46,250 nt of DNA from Candidatus Kaiserbacteria bacterium (GCA_027451665.1 DAIDIW010000002.1:1-46250), one strand, 5' to 3'; shown: positions 2 through 18,442, counted from the stretch's first letter. Notes: generated by a model from the letters alone, not told the origin. Translations and numbers: made by a program.

Positions 2-142
2 AACGGGAACCTGTCCGGTTCCGCTCCTGATACCGTTACCGGACAAACCACCTACACGATAACCTGCACCGGAGGCACCTCTGCGACCGCCGCGAGCGGG
101 AATGCGATTGTGAACGTGGTATCGAATTTCAAGGAATTCTAA
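2..142 (+). CDS. 3' end of a probable Ig-like/PKD-repeat surface protein (5'-truncated by the window)
   Basis: Frame 2 reads NGNLSGSAPDTVTGQTTYTITCTGGTSATAASGNAIVNVVSNFKEF* (TAA 140-142). The TTYTITC and V-x-V beta-strand pattern resembles the repeats of the 13238-16435 protein. Confidence 0.7.
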   Translation, partial: NGNLSGSAPDTVTGQTTYTITCTGGTSATAASGNAIVNVVSNFKEF

Positions 143-150
143 CTTACCCT

Positions 151-513
151 ATGTACACACGACTTACCGCTCTTCTTGCCCTCGTCCTCTTCTTAACGCC
201 TGTTGCAGCAGCAGCGCAGGCGACGAGCACCCATCCGGCCACCCCGCCGGCATATGAGACGAATCCTTCGAAATTGCCGCCGCCGCCGACAAAGTCACCG
301 TCTACGCATCTAACTGCTCCTAAGCCGCCTGCAGCCACACCCGTGAGCTCGACCACAACCGGCGTCCCGGGTACCGCGACCACCACCGCAGGCGCGACGG
401 GCCATACCGGCTTTCCAAACGTAACCTACGTGCTCATTGCGCTCGGCGTCATCGTTCTCGCAGGTCTTGCCGCGCTCGGTCTGCGGCATGGATCCTCGCA
501 GGAGACTCCGTAG
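151..513 (+). CDS. Small secreted Pro/Thr-rich membrane-anchored protein
   Basis: Signal peptide ([22 protein letters not shown]), P/T/S-rich stalk, [10 protein letters not shown]-terminal hydrophobic helix and RH tail. Confidence 0.8.
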
Positions 514-8154: not shown

Positions 8155-10233
8155 ATGGCTAAAAAGGCTGAAAACGAGATCAAGAAATCCTCCTATGACG
8201 CCTCGAGCATCCAGGTGCTCGAGGGACTTGAACCGGTCAGGAAGCGCCCGGGCATGTACATCGGGACGACCGGTCCCGAGGGCCTCCATCACCTCATCTG
8301 GGAGATCTTCGACAACGCGCGCGACGAGGCCATGGGCGGCTACGCCGACGACATCGAGGTGGCGCTCCTTCCGGGCGGCTACGTGCGCGTAGTCGATAAC
8401 GGCCGCGGCATTCCTGTCGGCATCCATCCGAAGACGAAGGTCTCGGCCCTGGAGACGATCATGACGACGCTCCACGCGGGCGGCAAGTTCGGCGGCGAAG
8501 ATTCCGGCTACAAGGTCTCAGGCGGTCTCCATGGCGTCGGCGCCTCCGTTGTGAACGCGCTCTCGACCAACATGAAAGTGCTCGTCCACAAGGACGGCGG
8601 GATCCACATGCAGGAATACAGGATCGGCAAGCCGCTCGCGAAGGTGAAGCAGGTCGGCAAGACGAAGCGACAGGGTTCGATCGTCATGTTCAGCCCCGAT
8701 GCGAGCATCTTCACTGGCGGCATTGAATGGAACTGGGAGAAAATTGTGAACCATCTTCGACAGCAGGCGTATCTTGTGAAGGACGTTCGCATCACGGTGA
8801 TTGATGCACGCGAGGACACGCGCGCCGGGATGGAAGCAGACGACGCATTCTACTTGCGCGAGCTCCCGCTCGACGTTCCTTCCATGACCTTCTTCTTCGA
8901 GGGCGGTCTCCGTTCGCTCGTCGCCTTCTACAACAAGTATCAGACACCGGTCCATAAGAACATCTTCTACGTCGACAAGGAGCAGGACGGCGTCGCCGTC
9001 GAGGTCGCGCTCCAGTACGTGGACGACATTACGCCGCGGCTCATTGCGTTTGCGAACAATATTTACAATCCTGAGCACGGGACGCACGTAACTGGTTTCA
9101 AGACGGCCCTCACGCGCACCCTGAACACCTACGGGCGCGCGGCGAACCTTATCAAGGAGAAGGACGAGAACTTCACGGGCGACGACGTGCTCGAGGGCAT
9201 CACCGCGGTTGTCAGCGTGAAGCTGCCGGAGATCCAGTTCGAAGGGCAGACCAAAGCGAAGCTCGGGAGCGTCGAGGCCCAAGGCGCGACCGCGACCGTA
9301 TTCGGCGAAGCGTTCGCGGCCTTCCTCGAGGAAAATCCCGACGACGCGAAGGCGATCGTGAACAAGGTGCTGCTTGCCTTGAAGGCGCGTAAGGCCGCGA
9401 AGGCCGCGAAGGACTCGGTGCTCCGCAAGGGAGCGCTCGAGGGTATGACGCTCCCAGGGAAGCTCGCGGACTGCCAGACGAAATCTGCTGAAGAGTCCGA
9501 GCTCTTCATCGTAGAGGGAGACTCGGCAGGCGGCACCGCGAAGACCGGACGCGACCGCCGTACGCAGGCCATCCTGCCCTTGCGCGGCAAGATCCTGAAC
9601 GTCGAGCGGGCGCGTCTCGACAAGATGCTTGCCTCCGAACAGGTGAAGAATCTCGTGGTCGCCTTGGGCACCGCGATCGGCGACATCTTCGATCTCTCGA
9701 AGCTCCGCTACCACAAGCTCATCATCGCGACCGATGCCGACGTGGACGGCGCGCACATCCGGACGCTCATCCTGACGCTCTTCTACCGTCATTTCCGCGC
9801 CATCATCGACGGCGGATTTGTCTACATCGCGCAGCCGCCGCTTTATAAGATCACCCGCGGTAAGGAGGTACGCTACGCCTATGTGGATGCGGAGAAGGCG
9901 AAGATACTGAAGGAGATGGGCGTCGCCGAAGAGGATGCCGTCGAATCGAGCGAAGAAGCGCCGATTGAGAACGAAGCTGAGGAGGAAGCGGGTGCGCCGA
10001 AGGTGAAGAAGAGCGCACGTGCGAACGTGCAGCGCTACAAGGGCCTGGGTGAGATGAACGCGTCCGAACTCTGGGAGACCACGATGGATCCGGCTCATCG
10101 CGTGCTGAAGCGGGTTACGGTCGAAGATGCCGAGGCTGCCGACAGGATCTTCGACATCCTCATGGGTACCGACGTCGCAAGCCGCAAATCGTTTATCCAG
10201 TCGAATGCGAAAGCCGCGACCTTGGACGTGTAA
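8155..10233 (+). CDS. gyrB: DNA gyrase subunit B
   Basis: YDASSIQVLEGLEPVRKRPGMYIG, GGLHGVGASVVN, EGDSAGG, ATDADVDG, QRYKGLGEMN. Confidence 0.97.
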   Translation: MAKKAENEIKKSSYDASSIQVLEGLEPVRKRPGMYIGTTGPEGLHHLIWEIFDNARDEAMGGYADDIEVALLPGGYVRVVDNGRGIPVGIHPKTKVSALETIMTTLHAGGKFGGEDSGYKVSGGLHGVGASVVNALSTNMKVLVHKDGGIHMQEYRIGKPLAKVKQVGKTKRQGSIVMFSPDASIFTGGIEWNWEKIVNHLRQQAYLVKDVRITVIDAREDTRAGMEADDAFYLRELPLDVPSMTFFFEGGLRSLVAFYNKYQTPVHKNIFYVDKEQDGVAVEVALQYVDDITPRLIAFANNIYNPEHGTHVTGFKTALTRTLNTYGRAANLIKEKDENFTGDDVLEGITAVVSVKLPEIQFEGQTKAKLGSVEAQGATATVFGEAFAAFLEENPDDAKAIVNKVLLALKARKAAKAAKDSVLRKGALEGMTLPGKLADCQTKSAEESELFIVEGDSAGGTAKTGRDRRTQAILPLRGKILNVERARLDKMLASEQVKNLVVALGTAIGDIFDLSKLRYHKLIIATDADVDGAHIRTLILTLFYRHFRAIIDGGFVYIAQPPLYKITRGKEVRYAYVDAEKAKILKEMGVAEEDAVESSEEAPIENEAEEEAGAPKVKKSARANVQRYKGLGEMNASELWETTMDPAHRVLKRVTVEDAEAADRIFDILMGTDVASRKSFIQSNAKAATLDV

Positions 10234-10354: not shown

Positions 10355-11110
10355 TCAGGAGCCGAGGATGGTGAGCATCGCCGACGCGTCGTTGTTGGCC
10401 GTGGTCGCGTCCGAGCCGCCCGGGTTCAGGTGTATCGAGATGGACTGCTTCGCGCCGGCATTCGCCTCATCGAAGCCGAGCGTGAACTGGATGCTTTCAC
10501 CAGGGCGCAGCACCTGCTGTGTTGGCGCGGTGTAGACATAGGCGGTCTGCGTCGGGATCTTCGCGGTGAAGTTCCAGGGCTGCGAGATGTTCGTGCCCAC
10601 GTTCTTCACCGTGAAGACGATTGCCGGCCGGGAGCCGTGGGGGACCGTCGAGCTCGCGACGAAGGACTCTGCGGAGGTGGTCGCGAGATAGCCGATCCGG
10701 TCGATGGTTACCGCGAGGTCGGGAAGACCATAGTACGTGCCCGTCGGCGTAGCGCCCGAGATCGTCGTGGTCGTCGACGTCTCGCGTCCGGGTTGCGGCA
10801 CGGGGTAGTGAGGCGTTGCGGGCGTACGCGAGGTTTGCGGGGCGGCCGCGGTCGTTGATGAAGATGAGAGTGCGCTCTCGACCGTCGACGTCGCGTCAGG
10901 GACGACGGAAAGCGAAGGTCTCGGGGAAGGAGAGAATGCGGAACTCAGGTAGACGGCAGCGGCGCCGAGGTGATCGACGGCGGCAGGGACGAAGCGCGCC
11001 GAATAGACTGCGAGCCACATGCCAAGCGCGACGAGCGCGACGAAGCCAACAATCGCAAGTCCATTCCGGGCGGATTCGCGGGTTCCTGGGTTCGGGGTGA
11101 GCGGGTCCAT
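10355..11110 (-). CDS. Membrane-anchored protein with S/T/P linker and C-terminal CARDB-like Ig domain
   Basis: TM GLAIVGFVALVALGMWLAVY, low-complexity stalk, PDLAVTI, FTVKNVGT, LRPGES, ANNDAS. Confidence 0.8.
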   Translation of the reverse strand: MDPLTPNPGTRESARNGLAIVGFVALVALGMWLAVYSARFVPAAVDHLGAAAVYLSSAFSPSPRPSLSVVPDATSTVESALSSSSTTAAAPQTSRTPATPHYPVPQPGRETSTTTTISGATPTGTYYGLPDLAVTIDRIGYLATTSAESFVASSTVPHGSRPAIVFTVKNVGTNISQPWNFTAKIPTQTAYVYTAPTQQVLRPGESIQFTLGFDEANAGAKQSISIHLNPGGSDATTANNDASAMLTILGS

Positions 11111-11205
11111 GAGATAGGTAATTTACAATAATGTTATTGGCTGTCAAGCTTTCGTACCGCGGCTTGACGATATTGACAATACGGTGTATTTGTTGGCAAG
11201 ACGAT

Positions 11206-11898
11206 ATGGAGGGGTTGGTACGCATCACGGCTCGGCTCGTCCGGGCGGCCAGGCTTGCTTATACGAGGAAGTGGACCTTCCTTGCACTCACGCTATCCGT
11301 ATTCCTGCTGTCCGTGTATGCGCTTTCCGTCCTTGGGCTGCTTCCGGATGCACCGGTCGCTTCCGCCGTTCCTGCAGACGGGATAACGCTTGCGTCGAGC
11401 ACATCTCTCGTGGCATCTGTGGATGCCGCGCCCGCGCTTGCAGGGATTGGCGAAGACCCTGTGAAGATCTCGATTCCCGTCATCAATCTCTCGGCAACTA
11501 TCGCGAACCCTGACACGACCGACATCGCTGCACTTGATGCGCTTCTTCTCAAGGGAGCGGTCCGCTACCCGACCTCGGTAAAACTCGGAGAAGATGGTAA
11601 TCTCATCCTGTTCGGCCATTCGAGCTATCTTCCCGTCGTACGGAACCAGGCCTACAAGACCTTTGACGGCATCCAGAAGCTTCATCCCGGGGACACCATC
11701 ACGATCTATTCATCTGACGCCGCGTACCTCTATAGCGTGCGGAGCGTCGAGAAGGAGAATGCGACTTCAGCCGCGATCCCGCTGTCCGTGAGCGGGAAGG
11801 TACTCACGCTCTCCACGTGCGATTCTTTCGCCGCGAAAACCGACCGGTTCGTGGTCACCGCCGATTTTGTGGGCAGTCATCCGATTACGGCCTCGTAG
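11206..11898 (+). CDS. Sortase family transpeptidase
   Basis: N-terminal TM; V.I.IP.INLSATI, GAVRYP, GNLILFGH (His), F..IQKLHPGDTITI, LTLSTC (TLxTC), TDRFVVTA (Arg). The catalytic triad is complete. Start moved to ATG 11206. Confidence 0.92.
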   Translation: MEGLVRITARLVRAARLAYTRKWTFLALTLSVFLLSVYALSVLGLLPDAPVASAVPADGITLASSTSLVASVDAAPALAGIGEDPVKISIPVINLSATIANPDTTDIAALDALLLKGAVRYPTSVKLGEDGNLILFGHSSYLPVVRNQAYKTFDGIQKLHPGDTITIYSSDAAYLYSVRSVEKENATSAAIPLSVSGKVLTLSTCDSFAAKTDRFVVTADFVGSHPITAS

Positions 11899-11910
11899 CA
11901 GCAATCGGAT

Positions 11911-11930
11911 GACTCTTCGCAAGAAGAGTC
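11911..11930 (+). terminator. GCAA-tetraloop hairpin after sortase
   Basis: gactcttc-gcaa-gaagagtc. Confidence 0.5.
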
Positions 11931-12010
11931 CGGAGCCGTGGTAGCTCCGTACCGTACTTTCAACCATGCCTCTCTCGAAACGAGAGTGGCGCAATAGAGG
12001 AGGAACACCA

Positions 12011-13138
12011 ATGAGAAAGCTCATTGTCGTGCTCGTCGCGCTGCTCGCACTCGGGGTTGCGCCGAAGATCACCTATCGCTCATCGGCTCTGGCTACGGCA
12101 ACGCTGCCGCTGCCGGAGTTCAAACTGTCGCTTATTCCGGCAGCGGAGGCCGCCCCGCGCGGCAATCCGTATTGCCGGATGGCCGGTACGCCAAAGCGCT
12201 TGGCGTCGCTCATCCAGGCGTCGCTCGAGAAGGATCATAGCGGCAATACGCCGCTCGATCCCGTCGCGTGCCACGAGGCGCGACCGGCTACACCGAGAGA
12301 AATCTATGAGACACTGCGCAAGTCGGAGGCACCTATCGTCTCGCTCGCGCAGACACCTGACTATGTGCGTTCCCTCGTGCCAGTCACGGTGCATGGGCGC
12401 TACCGCTCGGCGTGCTTGGCCTACCGGTTCGGTGCGCACGGAAAGATCGAGTGGTATCCGCTCGTGAATTGCGTGACGCGCCATCTGCACCATGCGGAAG
12501 TGATGTGGGGCGACCCCGTCTCGCATAAGCCGATGCTGCAAAGCGACTGCGCCAATCCGGTGCAGGGCCCGGCCCGGGAGTCCGGCTGCGTGGACGTGCT
12601 CATCCCCGTCGAGAAGGGTGACGAGGTCCGGATCCACAACACGGGTCCGACCGACATCGCCCAGTATGCGTGCACGGGTCTCTTGCGGGCCGGCGAGACC
12701 GAATGGGAATCCCCCTTCGTCGAGCACTGTCCGGACCCGGAGTGCACGTTCTCGTTCGAGGACGAGCTTACCGATGCACCGAGTTGGGGCATCGGCAGCT
12801 GGGTTGCGCAGAAGAACGGCTATGCCATCGTGCGCGAGCCCGCCTTGGTCGCTACACAGTCTTCCGGCGACTACCGGTTGTGGATTTGTGTCCGTCGTGC
12901 AGACGGTACGCAGAGCTGCGGCCTCGGTGTCCGCTGGCAAGACTATACGCGCCGGGATGATGCGCAGGTCGCCCGGTGGTTCAGGATCGAGGACGTGAAG
13001 CACGCGCGGATTCCGAGTGCTGATCGCATGCTTGCGGTCATCTACTCGGACAAGGCGTCCTTCATGGCGGCGGGTTCGCCGCTCACACGTCTCGGGACGG
13101 TCTCGGAGCTCTGGCTCAATTGGAACTGTCCCTGGTGA
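12011..13138 (+). CDS. Secreted cysteine-rich hypothetical protein (12 Cys)
   Basis: Strong SD agaggagg before ATG 12011; signal peptide MRKLIVVLVALLALGVAP; no family recognised. Confidence 0.75.
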   Translation: MRKLIVVLVALLALGVAPKITYRSSALATATLPLPEFKLSLIPAAEAAPRGNPYCRMAGTPKRLASLIQASLEKDHSGNTPLDPVACHEARPATPREIYETLRKSEAPIVSLAQTPDYVRSLVPVTVHGRYRSACLAYRFGAHGKIEWYPLVNCVTRHLHHAEVMWGDPVSHKPMLQSDCANPVQGPARESGCVDVLIPVEKGDEVRIHNTGPTDIAQYACTGLLRAGETEWESPFVEHCPDPECTFSFEDELTDAPSWGIGSWVAQKNGYAIVREPALVATQSSGDYRLWICVRRADGTQSCGLGVRWQDYTRRDDAQVARWFRIEDVKHARIPSADRMLAVIYSDKASFMAAGSPLTRLGTVSELWLNWNCPW

Positions 13139-13237
13139 ATGTAGGTGCGGGCAGATGAACTAACCATCTGCCCGCACCGACCACCTCCTCTTTTTTGTAC
13201 GCCGCGCAAGCGGCGGGGCGGGTTCACGTATTTCATC

Positions 13238-16200
13238 ATGAAAAAAACAGCGCAAGAGCTCATCGCGTTCAGCAACCGACGACCGATACTTATCGGCCTC
13301 TTCACGGTGCTCGCTACGGTGACTTTCGGCATGACGATTGCATTCGCGACCGGCCTCACGACGCCCGCGCAAGTGTTCGCGCAGGTTGTTCCGCCGTGCT
13401 GTGTACCGCCTCCGGCACCCCCTCCGCCGCCACCGCCACCGCCACCGCCCCCTCCGCCTCCTCCAGCAGTCGTGCCCACCTGCACTCTCTCTGCAAACCC
13501 AACCGCGCTTCCGGTCGGCGGCGGCTCCGCGACCTTGCATTGGTCGACGAACGCGGCGACGGGCGCCGTCATCGATCATGGTGTTGGAAGCGTCTCTCCC
13601 GTCGACTCCGGTTCGACATCGGTGTCGCTCACCTCTTCTACCGAATACACCATGACCGTCTCGGGCCCTGGCGGCCAGACGACCTGCTCGGCTACGGTGA
13701 AGGTGACTCCGCCTCCTCCCACCTGTTCGCTCTCCTCCTCTCCGTCCTCGATCGTCGCGGGAGACGCGACGACTCTCTCCTGGACGACGGCGAATGCGAC
13801 CTCGTTCTCAATCGACAACGGCATCGGCAGCGTACGGCCGGTCGCTTCCGGCTCGACGAGTGCGACTCCGACTGCTTCGGTGACCTACACCGGTACCGCA
13901 ACGGGACCGGGAGGCACCGTGCACTGTAGCGCGCTGGTTGCAGTCATCCCGGTGCTCACGGTCTCCTGCGCAGCATCTCCTGCATCGGCTCAAACCGGGG
14001 ATATCGTGACATGGACAGCATCCGCTTCGGGCGGCACGGGTTCCTATGGTTACTCGTGGAGCGGTACGGACGGGCTTTCCGGGTCGTCCTCTTCAGTCAC
14101 GAAATCGTACGATACCGCGGGTACGAAACAGGGTACGGTTTCGGTAACGAGCGGATCCCAGACGAAAACGGCTTCATGCTCGGCAACCATCACGGCACCG
14201 CCTCCGCCGCAGCCGGGAGCGCCTACCTGCACGCTCTCTGCCGCGCCGACTACCATTACGCAGGGTGACTCCTCGGCGCTCTCATGGACCACGACCAACG
14301 CGAAGAGCTTCTTCGTTGACAACGGCGTGGGGTACCTCACGCCGGTCGCTTCCGGCTCAACGACCGTTACGCCGGCTTCCTCGGTAACCTACACCGGCAC
14401 GGCAGTGGGCTATGACGGCTCGACCGTTACCTGTGGGACGACCGTAAATGTTGCGAAGCTTCAGACGCCTGCGTGTACCCTCTCCGCGGATCCGGCATCG
14501 ATCACGCAGGGCGGTACGTCGGCGCTTTCGTGGTTCGTGACGGATGCGGACGCTTTCTCGATTGATAACGGCATCGGCGCGGTTACGCCGATTCATGCGG
14601 GATCCGTGAACGTCTCGCCAAAATCCACGACGACCTACACCGGCACGGCCACGAACAATAACGGCAGGACGGCGGCATGTACGGCTACCGTCACCGTAAC
14701 GAGCAACCCCGCGCCTACCTGCACGCTCATCGCGAATCCCTCCTCGATCACGAAGGGCGACTCCTCGACGCTCTCATGGACCACGACCGACGCGACCTCG
14801 TTTTCAATAGACAACGGCGTAGGCACCGTAACGACGAGCGGCGGTTCCACAACGGTCTCGCCGACCGCGGATACGACCTACACCGGTACTGCAACGGGAC
14901 CGGGAGGCACCGTGCACTGTAGCGCGCCGATCGCGGTGACCGCGCCGCAACCAGTGTCCTGCTCACTTTCAGCGAGCCAGTCACAGGTGAGTTCCGGTGA
15001 TCATATCGTGCTCTCCTGGAACGCGCCGGGAGCCGGTACATTCAGCATCGATCAGGGCATCGGGAGCGTGTCCCCGGCCATTAGCGGGACAACGACCTCG
15101 AAGGCTATCACGGCGGATATGACGTTCACCGGGACCGCGGTAGCTCCGGATGGTCAATCCGCGACCTGTACGACGACGGTCACCGTAGGCGAAGGCGGGG
15201 GAGGCGGCGGGCCTTCCTGCACCATGACCGTGAGTCCGACTTCTATGAATGCGGGCAGCAGCGCTACGCTTACTTGGGGCGGCGCGGAAATCTCGACGGT
15301 TGATATCGATAATGGGATCGCCACGGGCACGACCTCTCCGGGGCATCTCACCGTTGCCCCGACGACGGCCGGGACGTACACCTACACAGGCACGTTCCAT
15401 GCGACGACCGGGCAAACGCTTACATGTTCGGCGACGCTCGCCGTTACCAGCGGTGGCGGTGGCGGTGGCGGAGGTGGCGGGGGAGGAGGTGGCGTGCCGC
15501 CACCCACGGTGACGCTCTTCTCGCACCCGACGACGCAGCCGCTCGCATACCTCTATCTGTCTCAGATCCCCTACACCGGTCTTGATCTCGGGCCGTTCGG
15601 GACGGTCGTCTACTGGATCGCGCTCATCGGCTGGTCGCTTGCACTCGCGTACCTTGTCCTCTTCAACGCCATGCCGTTCGCGAATATGCGTCTGCGCACC
15701 TTCGGGGCACGTGTGGCCGCCACGATAAACGCGGCGCCGGAGATGATCGAGGCGCGTCTGTCGGCTCCGACGCACTCCGCACCCGTGCATGATGAGCCTC
15801 CGCCGGCGCGACCGAGCGCACCGCCCGCTTCAGGCTATTCGAGCTATGAAGGTTTCAAGTCGTTCGCAACCGGAGGGTCGCTTACGGTCGACGATATCGT
15901 GAAGGGTCTTTCGCGCCGCTCGGCGCCCGTACCGAAACAGGTTGAGCCCGTCTATGAGCACCTTGAGCCGGTATATGAGAAAGTAGAACCGGTCTATGAG
16001 CACGTGGAGCCCGTCTACGAGAGCGTTGAGCCCATACCAGCACAGCCGAACGCGACGAAACCGGCAGGTGCGCCCGCCCGCGCCTCGGAAGCCGTTCCCA
16101 TGCTCGTGCCCGCAGAGATCCCTGCGTTCCTTGAGATACTCGTTCGCGGAGACCGTGAGCAGGCGTTCGCGTATTTGCGCGCGGTCATACGCAGCGGGGG

Positions 16201-16435
16201 AGACGCGGAGGCGTTCCTTACACAAGTCGCTTGTGCGCTTGATGATGCATATCGCGCACGTCTCGAGGGGACGCCGGTGCATCCGGAGGTGAAGCGCCTT
16301 ACCGATGCGTGCGCAACGGCCGTCCTCGAAAAGCTCGTGACCGCCTTCGTTACGGCTGTCGATTCATCCTATTCGGTCGGTATCACGGGCGCGAAGCTCG
16401 CACTCACGAGGGCGCTCGCGACTCTGGGTGCATAG
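13238..16435 (+). CDS. Large surface protein: signal peptide, poly-Pro, 8 Ig-like/PKD repeats, Gly linker, IPYTG + TM sorting signal, cytoplasmic tail
   Basis: Repeats PTC-L-A-P...LSW...IDNG-G...TYTGTA...C-TV-V; IPYTG at 15566-15580, then a hydrophobic helix and RLR. Start moved to ATG 13238 (1065 aa). Confidence 0.9.
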   Translation: MKKTAQELIAFSNRRPILIGLFTVLATVTFGMTIAFATGLTTPAQVFAQVVPPCCVPPPAPPPPPPPPPPPPPPPPAVVPTCTLSANPTALPVGGGSATLHWSTNAATGAVIDHGVGSVSPVDSGSTSVSLTSSTEYTMTVSGPGGQTTCSATVKVTPPPPTCSLSSSPSSIVAGDATTLSWTTANATSFSIDNGIGSVRPVASGSTSATPTASVTYTGTATGPGGTVHCSALVAVIPVLTVSCAASPASAQTGDIVTWTASASGGTGSYGYSWSGTDGLSGSSSSVTKSYDTAGTKQGTVSVTSGSQTKTASCSATITAPPPPQPGAPTCTLSAAPTTITQGDSSALSWTTTNAKSFFVDNGVGYLTPVASGSTTVTPASSVTYTGTAVGYDGSTVTCGTTVNVAKLQTPACTLSADPASITQGGTSALSWFVTDADAFSIDNGIGAVTPIHAGSVNVSPKSTTTYTGTATNNNGRTAACTATVTVTSNPAPTCTLIANPSSITKGDSSTLSWTTTDATSFSIDNGVGTVTTSGGSTTVSPTADTTYTGTATGPGGTVHCSAPIAVTAPQPVSCSLSASQSQVSSGDHIVLSWNAPGAGTFSIDQGIGSVSPAISGTTTSKAITADMTFTGTAVAPDGQSATCTTTVTVGEGGGGGGPSCTMTVSPTSMNAGSSATLTWGGAEISTVDIDNGIATGTTSPGHLTVAPTTAGTYTYTGTFHATTGQTLTCSATLAVTSGGGGGGGGGGGGGGVPPPTVTLFSHPTTQPLAYLYLSQIPYTGLDLGPFGTVVYWIALIGWSLALAYLVLFNAMPFANMRLRTFGARVAATINAAPEMIEARLSAPTHSAPVHDEPPPARPSAPPASGYSSYEGFKSFATGGSLTVDDIVKGLSRRSAPVPKQVEPVYEHLEPVYEKVEPVYEHVEPVYESVEPIPAQPNATKPAGAPARASEAVPMLVPAEIPAFLEILVRGDREQAFAYLRAVIRSGGDAEAFLTQVACALDDAYRARLEGTPVHPEVKRLTDACATAVLEKLVTAFVTAVDSSYSVGITGAKLALTRALATLGA
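15941..16036 (+). repeat. Four tandem 21-nt coding repeats (V/L-E-P-V-Y-E-x) plus a partial fifth
   Basis: VEPVYEH LEPVYEK VEPVYEH VEPVYES VEPI; the codons differ synonymously between units. Confidence 0.9.
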
Positions 16436-16513: not shown

Positions 16514-18253
16514 TTATAGGTGTTCGACAATTTCCTTCGTAAGGCGCGTGCTGAATTCGTCGAGCGGGAGTCCTTCGAGTTTGCCGTGGTCGCGGCTCTC
16601 AGCGGTGACGGTCTTTGCGTCCATCTCCGCGTTCCCAAGGACGAGTACGTAGGGCAGCTTTTGCCTCTTGGCCTCGCGGATGCGTTTACCCAGGGAATCG
16701 TTGCTCGCATCAATCTCTGTGCGAATACCCGCTTCCTGCAGCTTCGCAGCGACTTCCTTGCCGTACGCATGATGTGCCTCGGCGATCGGCACGATGCGTA
16801 CCTGCTCGGGCGAGAGCCAGAGCGGGAGATTGCCGCCCGTGTGTTCGAGCATGACCGCGCTGAATCGCTCGATGCTTCCCATGATGGCGCAGTGGATCAT
16901 GACGATGCGCTCCTTTTCGCCCTTTTCGTTGACGCACGTGAGATCGAAGCGTTCAGGCAGGTTCATGTCGAGCTGGATAGTAGCCACCTGGTGCTCGCGC
17001 CCGAGAGAATCCGTGGCCATGAAGTCGAGCTTCGGCCCGTACATCGCCGCTTCGCCTGGCGCCTCGAAGTGGTCGGCGCCACGCTCCGAAGCTATCTCGC
17101 GCAGCGCGTTCTCGGCGTTCGCCCAGATCTCAGGCGTACCGAGATAGCGTTCCGGGGCTGCCGGATCATGGAAAGAGAGGCGGACGCGCAGCCTGAAGCC
17201 GAACGCACCGTAGAAGGTATCGATGATGTCCCAGATCTTGAAGAATTCTTCCTTCACCTGGATGTGGCGGCAGAAGACGTGGGAATCGTCCTGGGTGATC
17301 GAAAGCACGCGCGTGAGTCCGCCGAGTTCGCCGGATTGCTCGTCGCGATACACCATGGTCGTTTCCGCGTACCGCTGCGGCATCTCACGATAGGAATGCG
17401 GATGGCGATCGAAGATCTGCGTGTGATGCGGGCAGTTCATGGGCTTCACCGCGTACTCCTTGTCTTCGCGTGTCTCGATGCGGAAAAGCTCATCCGCGAA
17501 CTTCTCCCAATGGCCCGACGTCTCGTAGAGCGCGCGCTTCGTGAGATGCGGGATGGTAACGCGCGCATAGCCATGCCGTTCGCGGAGCTGCCAGACGAAT
17601 GCATCAAGCAGGTGCCGCATGAGCGCGCCTTTCGGAGTCCAGAGCGGCAAGCCGGGACCGACGAGCTCGGAGAAGGTGAACAGGTCAAGCTCCTTCCCGA
17701 GGAGTCGGTGGTCGCGCTTTTTCGCCTCTTCGCGCTGCGCTGTGAGTGCATCGAGCTCCTCCTTCGTGTCGAACGCGAGGCCGTAGATGCGCGTGAGCAT
17801 CGGCTTCGTCTCATCGCCGCGCCAGTAGGCGCCCGCGACGCGGTCGAGCGCGAAGGAATCCGGCGCGATGTCCTCGGCGGGGTGGGCCGTGTGGCCCCCG
17901 CGGCACAAATCGGTGAATCCGCCGCACGTGTAGAGCGTAATGGGCTCGCCGCGCCCAGAGATCTCCTCGATGAGCTCGAGCTTGTACGGATTGCCCTTGA
18001 AGACCTCGCGCGCCTTCTCCGCGGAAACCTCCTCATGCGTGAATTCCTTCCACTCGCCGAGTCGCTTCCGCATGGCCTTCTCAAACGTCACGAGATCGGC
18101 ATCGGAAACCTTCTGGTCGCCGAAATCGATATCGTAGTAGAAGCCGGTGTCGATGGCCGGACCCAAAGTGAGCTTTGCTTCGGGATAGGACTCGAGCACC
18201 GCCTGGGCGAGTAGGTGGGCGAGCGTATGTCGTTTGGCTTCGAGGGGATTCAT
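16514..18253 (-). CDS. thrS: Threonyl-tRNA synthetase (no N-terminal TGS domain)
   Basis: RHTLAHLLAQAV, DLCRGGH, RDHRLLGKELDLF, KPMNCPHH, YRDEQSG, AMYGPKLDF, IHCAIMGSIERF. Start moved to ATG 18253. Confidence 0.96.
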   Translation of the reverse strand: MNPLEAKRHTLAHLLAQAVLESYPEAKLTLGPAIDTGFYYDIDFGDQKVSDADLVTFEKAMRKRLGEWKEFTHEEVSAEKAREVFKGNPYKLELIEEISGRGEPITLYTCGGFTDLCRGGHTAHPAEDIAPDSFALDRVAGAYWRGDETKPMLTRIYGLAFDTKEELDALTAQREEAKKRDHRLLGKELDLFTFSELVGPGLPLWTPKGALMRHLLDAFVWQLRERHGYARVTIPHLTKRALYETSGHWEKFADELFRIETREDKEYAVKPMNCPHHTQIFDRHPHSYREMPQRYAETTMVYRDEQSGELGGLTRVLSITQDDSHVFCRHIQVKEEFFKIWDIIDTFYGAFGFRLRVRLSFHDPAAPERYLGTPEIWANAENALREIASERGADHFEAPGEAAMYGPKLDFMATDSLGREHQVATIQLDMNLPERFDLTCVNEKGEKERIVMIHCAIMGSIERFSAVMLEHTGGNLPLWLSPEQVRIVPIAEAHHAYGKEVAAKLQEAGIRTEIDASNDSLGKRIREAKRQKLPYVLVLGNAEMDAKTVTAESRDHGKLEGLPLDEFSTRLTKEIVEHL

Positions 18254-18271
18254 GGCAGGCGTGTATGTAAA

Positions 18272-18442
18272 GGTAATAAGAAAGCGCCCTGGCGAAGACG
18301 GAAACAGGAGTTCCGTCTTCGCCAGGGCGCTCAAGGCGCGGTTCCACCCGGCTTCTCGCGCGTGCGCGCGACTCGTTCGACTCGGATTAGGCCCTCGGGC
18401 GCCGGCGGCCTTCGGTTGGTAGCCGAAGCAATCTCCGATAGC
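18272..18442 (-). promoter_or_regulatory. T-box riboswitch with intrinsic terminator upstream of thrS
   Basis: Minus strand: specifier hairpin cttcgg-ctACCaa-ccgaag, Stem III tcgcgc/gcgcga, T-box AAGCCGGGTGGAACCGCG, antiterminator GCCGGG/CCUGGC + GCG/CGC, overlapping a 20-bp terminator (18284-18330) with a U-rich tail. Confidence 0.9.

Follow-up and report, generated by a model that had tools for sequence, protein, structure and literature searches.

A putative one-enzyme, one-substrate sortase system with a PYTG-type signal and a conserved, predicted cytoplasmic tail in a Candidatus Kaiserbacteria genome

We examined a 46,250-nucleotide stretch of DNA from Candidatus Kaiserbacteria bacterium (GCA_027451665.1, DAIDIW010000002.1:1-46250), here called the window, and found in it a sortase gene and, two genes apart on the same strand, the gene for a 1065-residue surface protein with the motif IPYTG ahead of a transmembrane (TM) helix. 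The genome with the window spans 720 kb in 9 contigs, is 96.8% complete, and holds this sole sortase and this single protein with xPxTG and a TM helix. We think it somewhat probable that the two make up a dedicated single-substrate sortase system in an ultra-small, Paceibacteria-type member of the Candidate Phyla Radiation (CPR, Patescibacteria), with a full chain that would run through cleavage of the protein to an autonomous tail module; the pairing of sortase and substrate is itself held with higher confidence than the whole chain. The substrate and its homologues form a CPR surface-protein family that puts a conserved, folded and predicted cytoplasmic domain behind a sorting signal.

An earlier note on this DNA had listed the sortase, the ectodomain repeats, a poly-Gly stretch, IPYTG at 15566-15580, the TM helix and a tail of about 250 residues, all of which are present, and had proposed a sortase-coupled signalling system. 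The structural part of that proposal, an anchor with a large cytoplasmic domain, is supported, since the checks of conservation, co-occurrence and topology described below all passed; the signalling part is not supported, no kinase, transcription-factor or other signalling domain being found in the tail or the locus.

The candidate sorting signal and the sortase

The substrate precursor is encoded by a single continuous open reading frame (ORF; 13238-16435, + strand, as are all window features below unless noted). It begins with a signal peptide or anchor (hydrophobic residues 16-40 in a hydropathy scan), a CC pair and a poly-Pro tract (together 13238-13468); the tract itself (residues 57-77, 13406-13468) is encoded by imperfect CCN repeats. 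Cysteine positions and repeat alignment divide the ectodomain (13475-15448) into eight immunoglobulin (Ig)-like units, each within a Cys pair, with pairs running from 82/150 to 661/730. Seven of the eight are homologous repeats of ~78 residues and unit 3 is PKD-like (PKD_4, E 1.1e-4, under the Pfam cut-off); Pfam and NCBIfam scans of the substrate gave nothing beyond this sub-threshold match. A linker of 14 glycines follows (residues 739-752, 15452-15493).

Between this linker and the TM helix lies the candidate signal YLSQIPYTGLDLGP. IPYTG occupies residues 777-781 (15566-15580), with Thr780|Gly781 as the putative cleavage site. Flank conservation extends the motif into a sorting-signal-like block, YLYLSQ-IPYTG-LDLGP (15548-15595), which is followed by the TM helix (residues 790-814, YW..L..WSLA.AYL.LF) and the basic juxtamembrane sequence RLRTFGARV (together 15605-15715). 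The elements of a sorting signal, namely xPxTG, a hydrophobic helix and basic residues (RLRTFGAR), are therefore all found in that order, though away from the canonical extreme C-terminus, with 251 residues beyond the helix.

With the last 306 residues as query, 157 homologues were found, with E-values down to 1e-117; the counts of motif, helix and tail given here cover the 120 of these that were listed. Conservation of PYTG among homologues had been set as a test beforehand in the earlier note, and xP[YQ]TG is retained in all 120, as IPYTG in 92, VPYTG in 15, LPYTG in 4, and IPQTG, TPYTG and MPYTG in 3 each. The flanks YLSQ and GL[DE]LGP are near-invariant and the sequence of the helix is itself conserved, giving [LV]YLSQ-xPYTG-L[DE]LGP and then GT..YW..L..WSLA.AYL.LF; every one of the 120 continues for 250-320 residues past the motif. 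The ectodomains are of different lengths, and their precomputed Pfam domains differ too (SpaA, DUF11, dockerin, fn3, I-set). Because motif, helix and tail are kept while the ectodomains differ, we regard the C-terminal cassette as the constant part of the family and the ectodomain as the variable part.

Within the genome, a six-frame scan with several relaxed patterns found xPxTG followed by a hydrophobic helix at a single site. Genome-wide scans for PYTG, SQ[ILV]P, and [ILV]PxT[GAS] with a hydrophobic run turned up no credible second substrate, nor did a search of the genome for a C-terminal helix and basic tail together with xPx[TSA][GASN].

The sortase has 230 residues counted from the ATG at 11206 (11206-11898), with an upstream ATG at 11131 as a possible alternative start. 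It matches the Pfam Sortase model PF04203 at E 1.1e-18 (67.7 bits, cut-off 26.6; 69.1 bits in the genome-wide search with that model). A TM anchor (residues 23-46, 11272-11343) precedes the three catalytic motifs, LFGHSS for His (11608-11625), TLSTC for Cys (11806-11820) and TDRFVV for Arg (11839-11856), which align with those of Bacillus anthracis SrtA (2kw8), the nearest solved relative (E 6.6e-5). None of the NCBIfam sortase classes reached its cut-off, the best being class E with 42.3 vs 160 bits, and the class D, C, F, B and GN models scored far under theirs. Judged by these models, the sortase falls in no curated class.

The link between motif and sortase was examined in an even sample of 201 genomes from the order, searched with a profile of the cassette (A1) and with PF04203. 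The cassette was found in 43 genomes, a sortase in 91, and both in 42. The co-occurrence expected in the earlier note is borne out, a sortase being present in 42/43 cassette carriers vs 49/158 genomes without the cassette. In 33 of the 43 carriers the sortase lies upstream on the same contig and strand, at 0.6-8.3 kb (median 2.4 kb), a distance that essentially equals the ectodomain length. The remaining 10 comprise 9 with the two genes on separate contigs of fragmented assemblies and 1 with no detected sortase.

Many of the order-level A1 matches span the motif and helix alone and are still sortase-adjacent. Twenty such proteins were read; they have SQ[IV]PYTG and the helix, and end 53 to 367 residues past the motif. 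Their alternative tail modules recur, e.g. ...LLSSDA...W..L... or ...PRIVI[NS]R, and 2 of the 20 include a distant copy of the present C-terminal domain. This tail type is confined to the order: at the level of the class, 5/301 genomes matched, all within the window's own order, although diverged copies may escape the first-look filter of that search. Since PYTG proteins with other tails adjoin a sortase and tails that lack the motif (described below) do not, sortase adjacency tracks the motif and not the tail.

The predicted cytoplasmic tail

With a signal peptide at its N-terminus and a single helix besides, the precursor is expected to have its tail in the cytoplasm. Over 121 sequences the mean net charge flanking the helix is -1.4 on the ectodomain side and +1.8 on the tail side, in 98% of them the tail side carries the more positive charge, and Lys/Arg number 3.2 on average in the first 20 residues past the helix. 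The predicted topology, with the ectodomain outside and the tail in the cytoplasm, agrees with what had been proposed before.

The 251 residues after the helix comprise a Pro/Ala-rich stretch, a 29-residue motif, VEPVYE repeats and a helical C-terminal domain. The motif, GYSSYEGFKSFAxGGSLTVDDIVKGLSRR (15833-15919), is conserved, with invariant G, F, L, D, V and L columns in A1. The repeats are tandem (V/L)EPVYE(H/K/S) units, 4.4 copies of 21 nt (15941-16033; Tandem Repeats Finder score 102), for which the family consensus is VEP[IV]YEN in 2-5 copies. Phosphorylation of the repeat tyrosines was considered and rejected: PF00069 found no Hanks-type kinase in the genome (BY-kinases were not searched), and these tyrosines therefore have no obvious kinase of their own. 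The C-terminal domain covers residues 960-1065 (106 residues, 16115-16432) and has six helices.

The tail was modelled with AlphaFold2 from a 28-sequence alignment. The model has a long helix that would run from just past Gly781 through the membrane (predicted local distance difference test, pLDDT, > 90). In it the Pro/Ala-rich region is poorly ordered, the conserved motif GYSSYEGFKSFA..GSLTVDDIVKGLSR forms two short helices (pLDDT ~71), and the VEPVYE repeat region is disordered. The C-terminal domain is modelled at pLDDT 94-97 within the tail, and alone at pLDDT 89 with a predicted template modelling score (pTM) of 0.81. This is the helical C-terminal domain of the earlier note, and AlphaFold2 together with Foldseek makes it similar to the collar of DnaX.

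In a Foldseek search of the PDB, Escherichia coli DnaX (gamma) chains account for 33/34 best matches, the exception being Bacillus subtilis delta (3zh9), and further delta, delta', MgsA and RFC chains rank lower. The best matches cover 110-116 columns at a root-mean-square deviation of 2.4-3.1 and probability 1.00; with the comparison of the domain modelled alone included, the ranges for DnaX are 2.4-3.8 over 109-117 columns. For the domain modelled alone the query-normalised TM-score is 0.70-0.74 for DnaX, 0.61 for B. subtilis delta and 0.46-0.59 for RFC subunits. By hhalign, the domain matches 18 DnaX proteins of relatives with 77% probability and E 2e-5 over 51 columns, its first 51 columns aligning to the start of DnaX domain III. 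On the strength of the model we hold with high confidence that the C-terminal domain folds like the collar, domain III, of DnaX gamma/tau; it was apparently recruited from the replication clamp loader, in which this collar holds the subunits together. An AAA+ module had no match in the substrate (Pfam, NCBIfam), and it is instead the TM helix, the 29-residue motif and the repeats that precede the domain.

Fourteen residues of the C-terminal domain are invariant (R, DD.YR, LE, D..Y....TG.K.A..R.L), and these are no features of DnaX. The invariant DSSYSxGxTGAKLALTRAL (window 16340-16400, residues ~1035-1054) is similar to a phosphate-binding loop placed where a helix begins. The DSSYS loop and the invariant LDDAYRAR jointly suggest a ligand or partner site, and not a mere oligomerisation surface.

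Some other PYTG proteins (P0219, residues 1125-1215; L022, L023, L029-L034) carry a module ...ARe.nVLiSsDAla.I...W..L...V, either between the helix and the collar-like domain or alone. Its weak hhalign match is to domain II of DnaX, the lid, and keeps register with the collar (22% probability, E 1e-3); this hints, as a lead only, that the ancestral tail may have been DnaX domains II-III. The DnaX proteins of the genome (C2:237381-237755) and of 17 relatives are gamma-like, with 337-373 residues ending after domain III, and lack domains IV-V, the tau-type C-terminal part that would contact DnaB and Pol III alpha.

A profile of the C-terminal domain (A2) was searched against 1.84 billion representatives of clusters at 50% identity, and matched 429 clusters at E <= 1e-3, giving a family of at least 429 clusters. 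In every A2 match listed the domain is at or near the C-terminus. Among 115 new representatives listed, 63 have PYTG and the helix upstream, 21 more fit a relaxed pattern only (candidate PYTG), and the other 31 are mostly fragments whose N-terminal part is missing and which begin within the helix or the tail.

A few relatives hold the tail at the membrane with no sorting signal. P0196 (325 residues; 5 contigs, three sources) is encoded between gyrB and thrS, as the substrate is in the window (L050 6001-6978), in a locus without the sortase and the Cys-rich gene described below, and is itself without ectodomain and PYTG. Its first 70 residues have 49% identity over 65 residues (E 4e-14) to the TM anchor of the protein encoded at 10355-11110 in the window, and this anchor runs straight into the conserved helix and a complete tail. 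P0194 (315 residues), of two helices plus tail, lies in an unrelated neighbourhood with no sortase within 4 kb. Both retain every invariant residue of the tail. P0185 has a 47-residue stub and a degenerate ISYAG ahead of its tail. Since the tail persists, tethered to the membrane, once motif and sortase are gone, it appears to have a function of its own, and the persistence of these motif-less tails is the strongest indication of it. Another protein, P0153 (376 residues), has a UvrD/PcrA-like N-terminal part with the Walker A sequence GPGTGKTH, continued by half of the conserved helix and then by the whole tail; it is probably a deletion or assembly chimera.

Neighbouring genes

Three ORFs of the same direction, for the sortase, a Cys-rich protein and the substrate, lie between gyrB (8155-10233, +) and thrS (16514-18334, - strand). 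Throughout the genus the locus is fixed: gyrB comes first, then a divergent TM-Ig gene and the sortase, next in some genomes the Cys-rich gene, and last the PYTG protein and thrS. The divergent gene (10355-11110, - strand) encodes 251 residues with a TM anchor at the N-terminus and an Ig-like domain, which has a weak Pfam match to HYDIN/VesB-like Ig (E 8.6e-4). Its homologue adjoins the sortase in 8/10 loci of the genus or family. Since it is without PYTG, this gene is context and no sortase substrate.

The Cys-rich gene (11966-13138), between sortase and substrate, encodes 390 residues with 12 Cys and a hydrophobic N-terminal segment; family-model scans gave no Pfam or NCBIfam match. Homologues with 26-37% identity were found in 11/40 other genomes of the genus. 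A homologue stands directly 3' of the sortase in 8/8 fetched loci carrying one, and precedes the PYTG protein in the 7/7 such loci where the substrate is visible. Identity within the genus is 26-32% for the Cys-rich gene, 45-48% for the PYTG tail and 51-64% for thrS. The Cys-rich product is secreted or anchored, and its gene, the third of the locus, is optional and evolves much faster than its neighbours. A strong hairpin and T-run follow it (13139-13237: GGTGCGGGCAGATG...CATCTGCCCGCACC...CTCTTTTTTGT), and the PYTG gene may therefore have a promoter of its own.

At the start of the contig a partial ORF (window 31-510) encodes a Thr/Gly-rich sequence with a C-terminal hydrophobic helix followed by RHGSSQETP. 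Its product is anchored C-terminally, without a PYTG-type motif.

Mechanism, alternatives and comparison with known systems

We propose the following mechanism. The 1065-residue precursor would be exported by way of its N-terminal signal peptide and held in the membrane by the conserved C-terminal helix, with the Ig repeats outside and the 251-residue tail in the cytoplasm. The membrane-anchored sortase would recognise YLSQ[IV]PYTG[L][DE]LGP, ~9 residues outside the helix, and cut between Thr and Gly, with transfer of the ectodomain to an amine acceptor, most likely a peptidoglycan precursor. Because the genome has four Mur ligase genes, lipid II or peptidoglycan is the obvious candidate for this acceptor. 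The remnant in the membrane would consist of Gly-LDLGP, the TM helix and the tail, as an autonomous cytoplasmic module. We read the tail as more than a stop-transfer stub; by analogy with the collar, it most likely oligomerises or docks to a cytoplasmic partner. What the data show directly is the anatomy, the conservation, the genomic linkage of motif and sortase, the predicted topology and the fold, whereas cleavage, the acceptor and the role of the tail are inferred.

A more elaborate form of this mechanism is a two-in-one device, in which cleavage both installs a variable adhesin on the wall and generates or unmasks a tethered collar-derived module that assembles into a ring or docks onto an AAA+ or clamp-loader-type partner, coupling surface deployment or cell-cell contact to a process in the cytoplasm; P0194 and P0196 would then be constitutive forms. 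We regard this elaboration as rather unlikely.

Several results weigh against the proposed system. The anchor models PF00746 and TIGR01167 do not match the substrate at E <= 0.1, and the specificity of the sortase cannot be read from its sequence because it fits no curated class. The motif flanks and the TM helix are conserved far past the known needs of a sorting signal, which could mean a structural or interaction role, instead of or besides recognition. Fisher's exact test gives p = 1e-16 for the co-occurrence of cassette and sortase, a value that ignores shared ancestry. As to the tail domain, the best Foldseek E-values are 6e-3 to 8e-3 (at probability 1.00), PDB sequences searched with a HMMER profile of the tail yielded noise only (E above 1), and PF12169 at E <= 0.01 detects the true dnaX only, and misses the tail, in the present genome and likewise in the relatives. 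Because plain sequence search gave noise, the link to DnaX rests on fold comparison and hhalign; the likeness is mainly structural, with a sequence link that is weak but consistent.

The wide conservation around the motif is also what would be expected if the protein were never cleaved, but were a stable bitopic adhesin or receptor in which YLSQIPYTGLDLGP served as a juxtamembrane structural or interaction element, the sortase acting elsewhere or as a non-catalytic partner. Conservation does reach both flanks of the motif and the entire TM helix, a large conserved tail is an odd thing to part from its ectodomain, and the sortase is outside the characterised classes. However, the pentapeptide fits the xPxTG consensus and is followed, at canonical spacing, by a hydrophobic helix with basic residues behind it, the genome is without another candidate substrate, and the sortase retains its His/Cys/Arg triad. 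Adjacency to a sortase, moreover, follows the motif whatever the tail, and the proteins without the motif are also without a sortase neighbour. We consider an uncleaved protein improbable. That the sortase instead polymerises the Ig-repeat protein into a pilus-like fibre, in the manner of class C and not by single-copy wall anchoring, is very unlikely. The ectodomain is a string of Ig-like units as in Gram-positive pilins, and some homologues have SpaA-type domains (PF17802), but there is a single sortase, with a class C score of 24.6 vs 160 bits, and the genome has no second pilin or housekeeping sortase. No pilin-motif or isopeptide-domain match was found in the substrate (Pfam, NCBIfam), and the ectodomains are interchangeable, whereas a polymerising subunit should retain the domain that bears its nucleophile. 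Fusion of a separate cytoplasmic tail gene to the rest in silico, by frameshift or misassembly, might be read into the rare stand-alone tail proteins P0194 and P0196, yet these still hold the conserved TM helix. Such an artefact is ruled out for practical purposes by the uninterrupted ORF and by the same architecture in 120/120 listed homologues, from independent assemblies and sources.

Sortase-gated signalling, as put forward in the earlier note, would have cleavage at PYT|G change the oligomerisation, partner binding or turnover of the tail, and thereby report adhesin deployment or contact. Within the genus the tail is conserved like a housekeeping enzyme (45-48%, vs 51-64% for thrS and 26-32% for the Cys-rich gene), the natural ectodomain-less forms resemble constitutive stubs, and, as far as the account in PMC7763024 goes, the sensing of C-peptides in Streptococcus gordonii is a precedent. 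But the tail and the locus have no output domain, kinase, transcription factor or regulator, and neither a two-component gene nor a kinase gene occurs in the conserved locus (no genome-wide search for histidine kinases was made). The established role of the collar fold is assembly and not switching, and the collar-like bundle therefore points to oligomerisation or docking over a classical signalling output. The data fit a change on cleavage and a constitutive role of the tail alike; signalling on cleavage is compatible with them, without support from them, and we think it unlikely though worth keeping in mind.

If the sortase does cut at PYT|G, the known range of sortase specificity widens, the surface proteome of uncultured Patescibacteria, whose attachment to hosts is poorly understood, becomes easier to predict, and a new type of coupling across the membrane comes into view, with the retained stub as the functional product. 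The motif can already serve as a computational marker of CPR adhesins, and protein engineering may gain from it a new pair of sortase and tag. Sortases are common in the CPR, where Méheust et al. (2019) record a sortase family in over half of the genomes. Neither the PYTG signal nor a sorting signal followed by a conserved cytoplasmic domain was found described in the literature, Pfam or NCBIfam.

The present pair would work like an LPXTG-sortase pair, yet its signal is away from the canonical C-terminal position, the anchor models fail to match and the enzyme is classless. As with LPXTG signals and class A SrtA (Staphylococcus/Bacillus) or class E (LAXTG, Actinobacteria), the enzyme is an anchored Cys transpeptidase with a His/Cys/Arg triad, the substrate has a signal peptide, xPxTG, a short spacer, a hydrophobic helix and basic residues, and the peptidoglycan pathway is present. 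Unlike in those systems, [IV]PYTG here is part of a conserved block of 16 residues, the helix has a conserved sequence, 251 conserved residues follow the basic stretch, and the enzyme is far under every class cut-off. Moreover, unlike the housekeeping sortases of LPXTG systems, the pairing is strictly of one enzyme with one substrate, encoded by adjacent genes.

In this last respect the closest parallel is the class GN 'marine proteobacterial' sortase (TIGR03784), which has a single adjacent target with a family-specific signal. The present pair is likewise one sortase beside one cognate substrate, but its match to TIGR03784 is negligible (16.9 vs 158 bits), and lineage and motif are different; we know of no cytoplasmic domain after the signal in TIGR03784 targets. 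The C-terminal domain is, like DnaX domain III (PF12169; 1jr3, 3glf, 8giy), a predicted six-helix bundle of ~110 residues (TM-score 0.70-0.74). The tail has this collar fold, yet is no clamp-loader subunit: in contrast to DnaX it is without the AAA+ ATPase module, is tethered to the membrane behind a sortase signal and is missed by the Pfam model, and it has LDDAYRAR and VDSSYSxGxTGAKLALTRAL, both absent from DnaX.

Sorting signals are textbook C-terminal tripartite tags, and the membrane remnant is regarded as waste; to our knowledge the S. gordonii circuit is the one exception. There, according to the account available, an intramembrane two-component system senses the cleaved C-peptides of LPXTG proteins (Hall et al., 2019, via PMC7763024). 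As in that circuit, a membrane-retained product of the sortase would carry information in the present system, unlike in it the present locus has no two-component system, and whereas the S. gordonii C-peptide is, in the same account, a short TM stub with a separate two-component reader, the stub here would bear a folded module of 250 residues.

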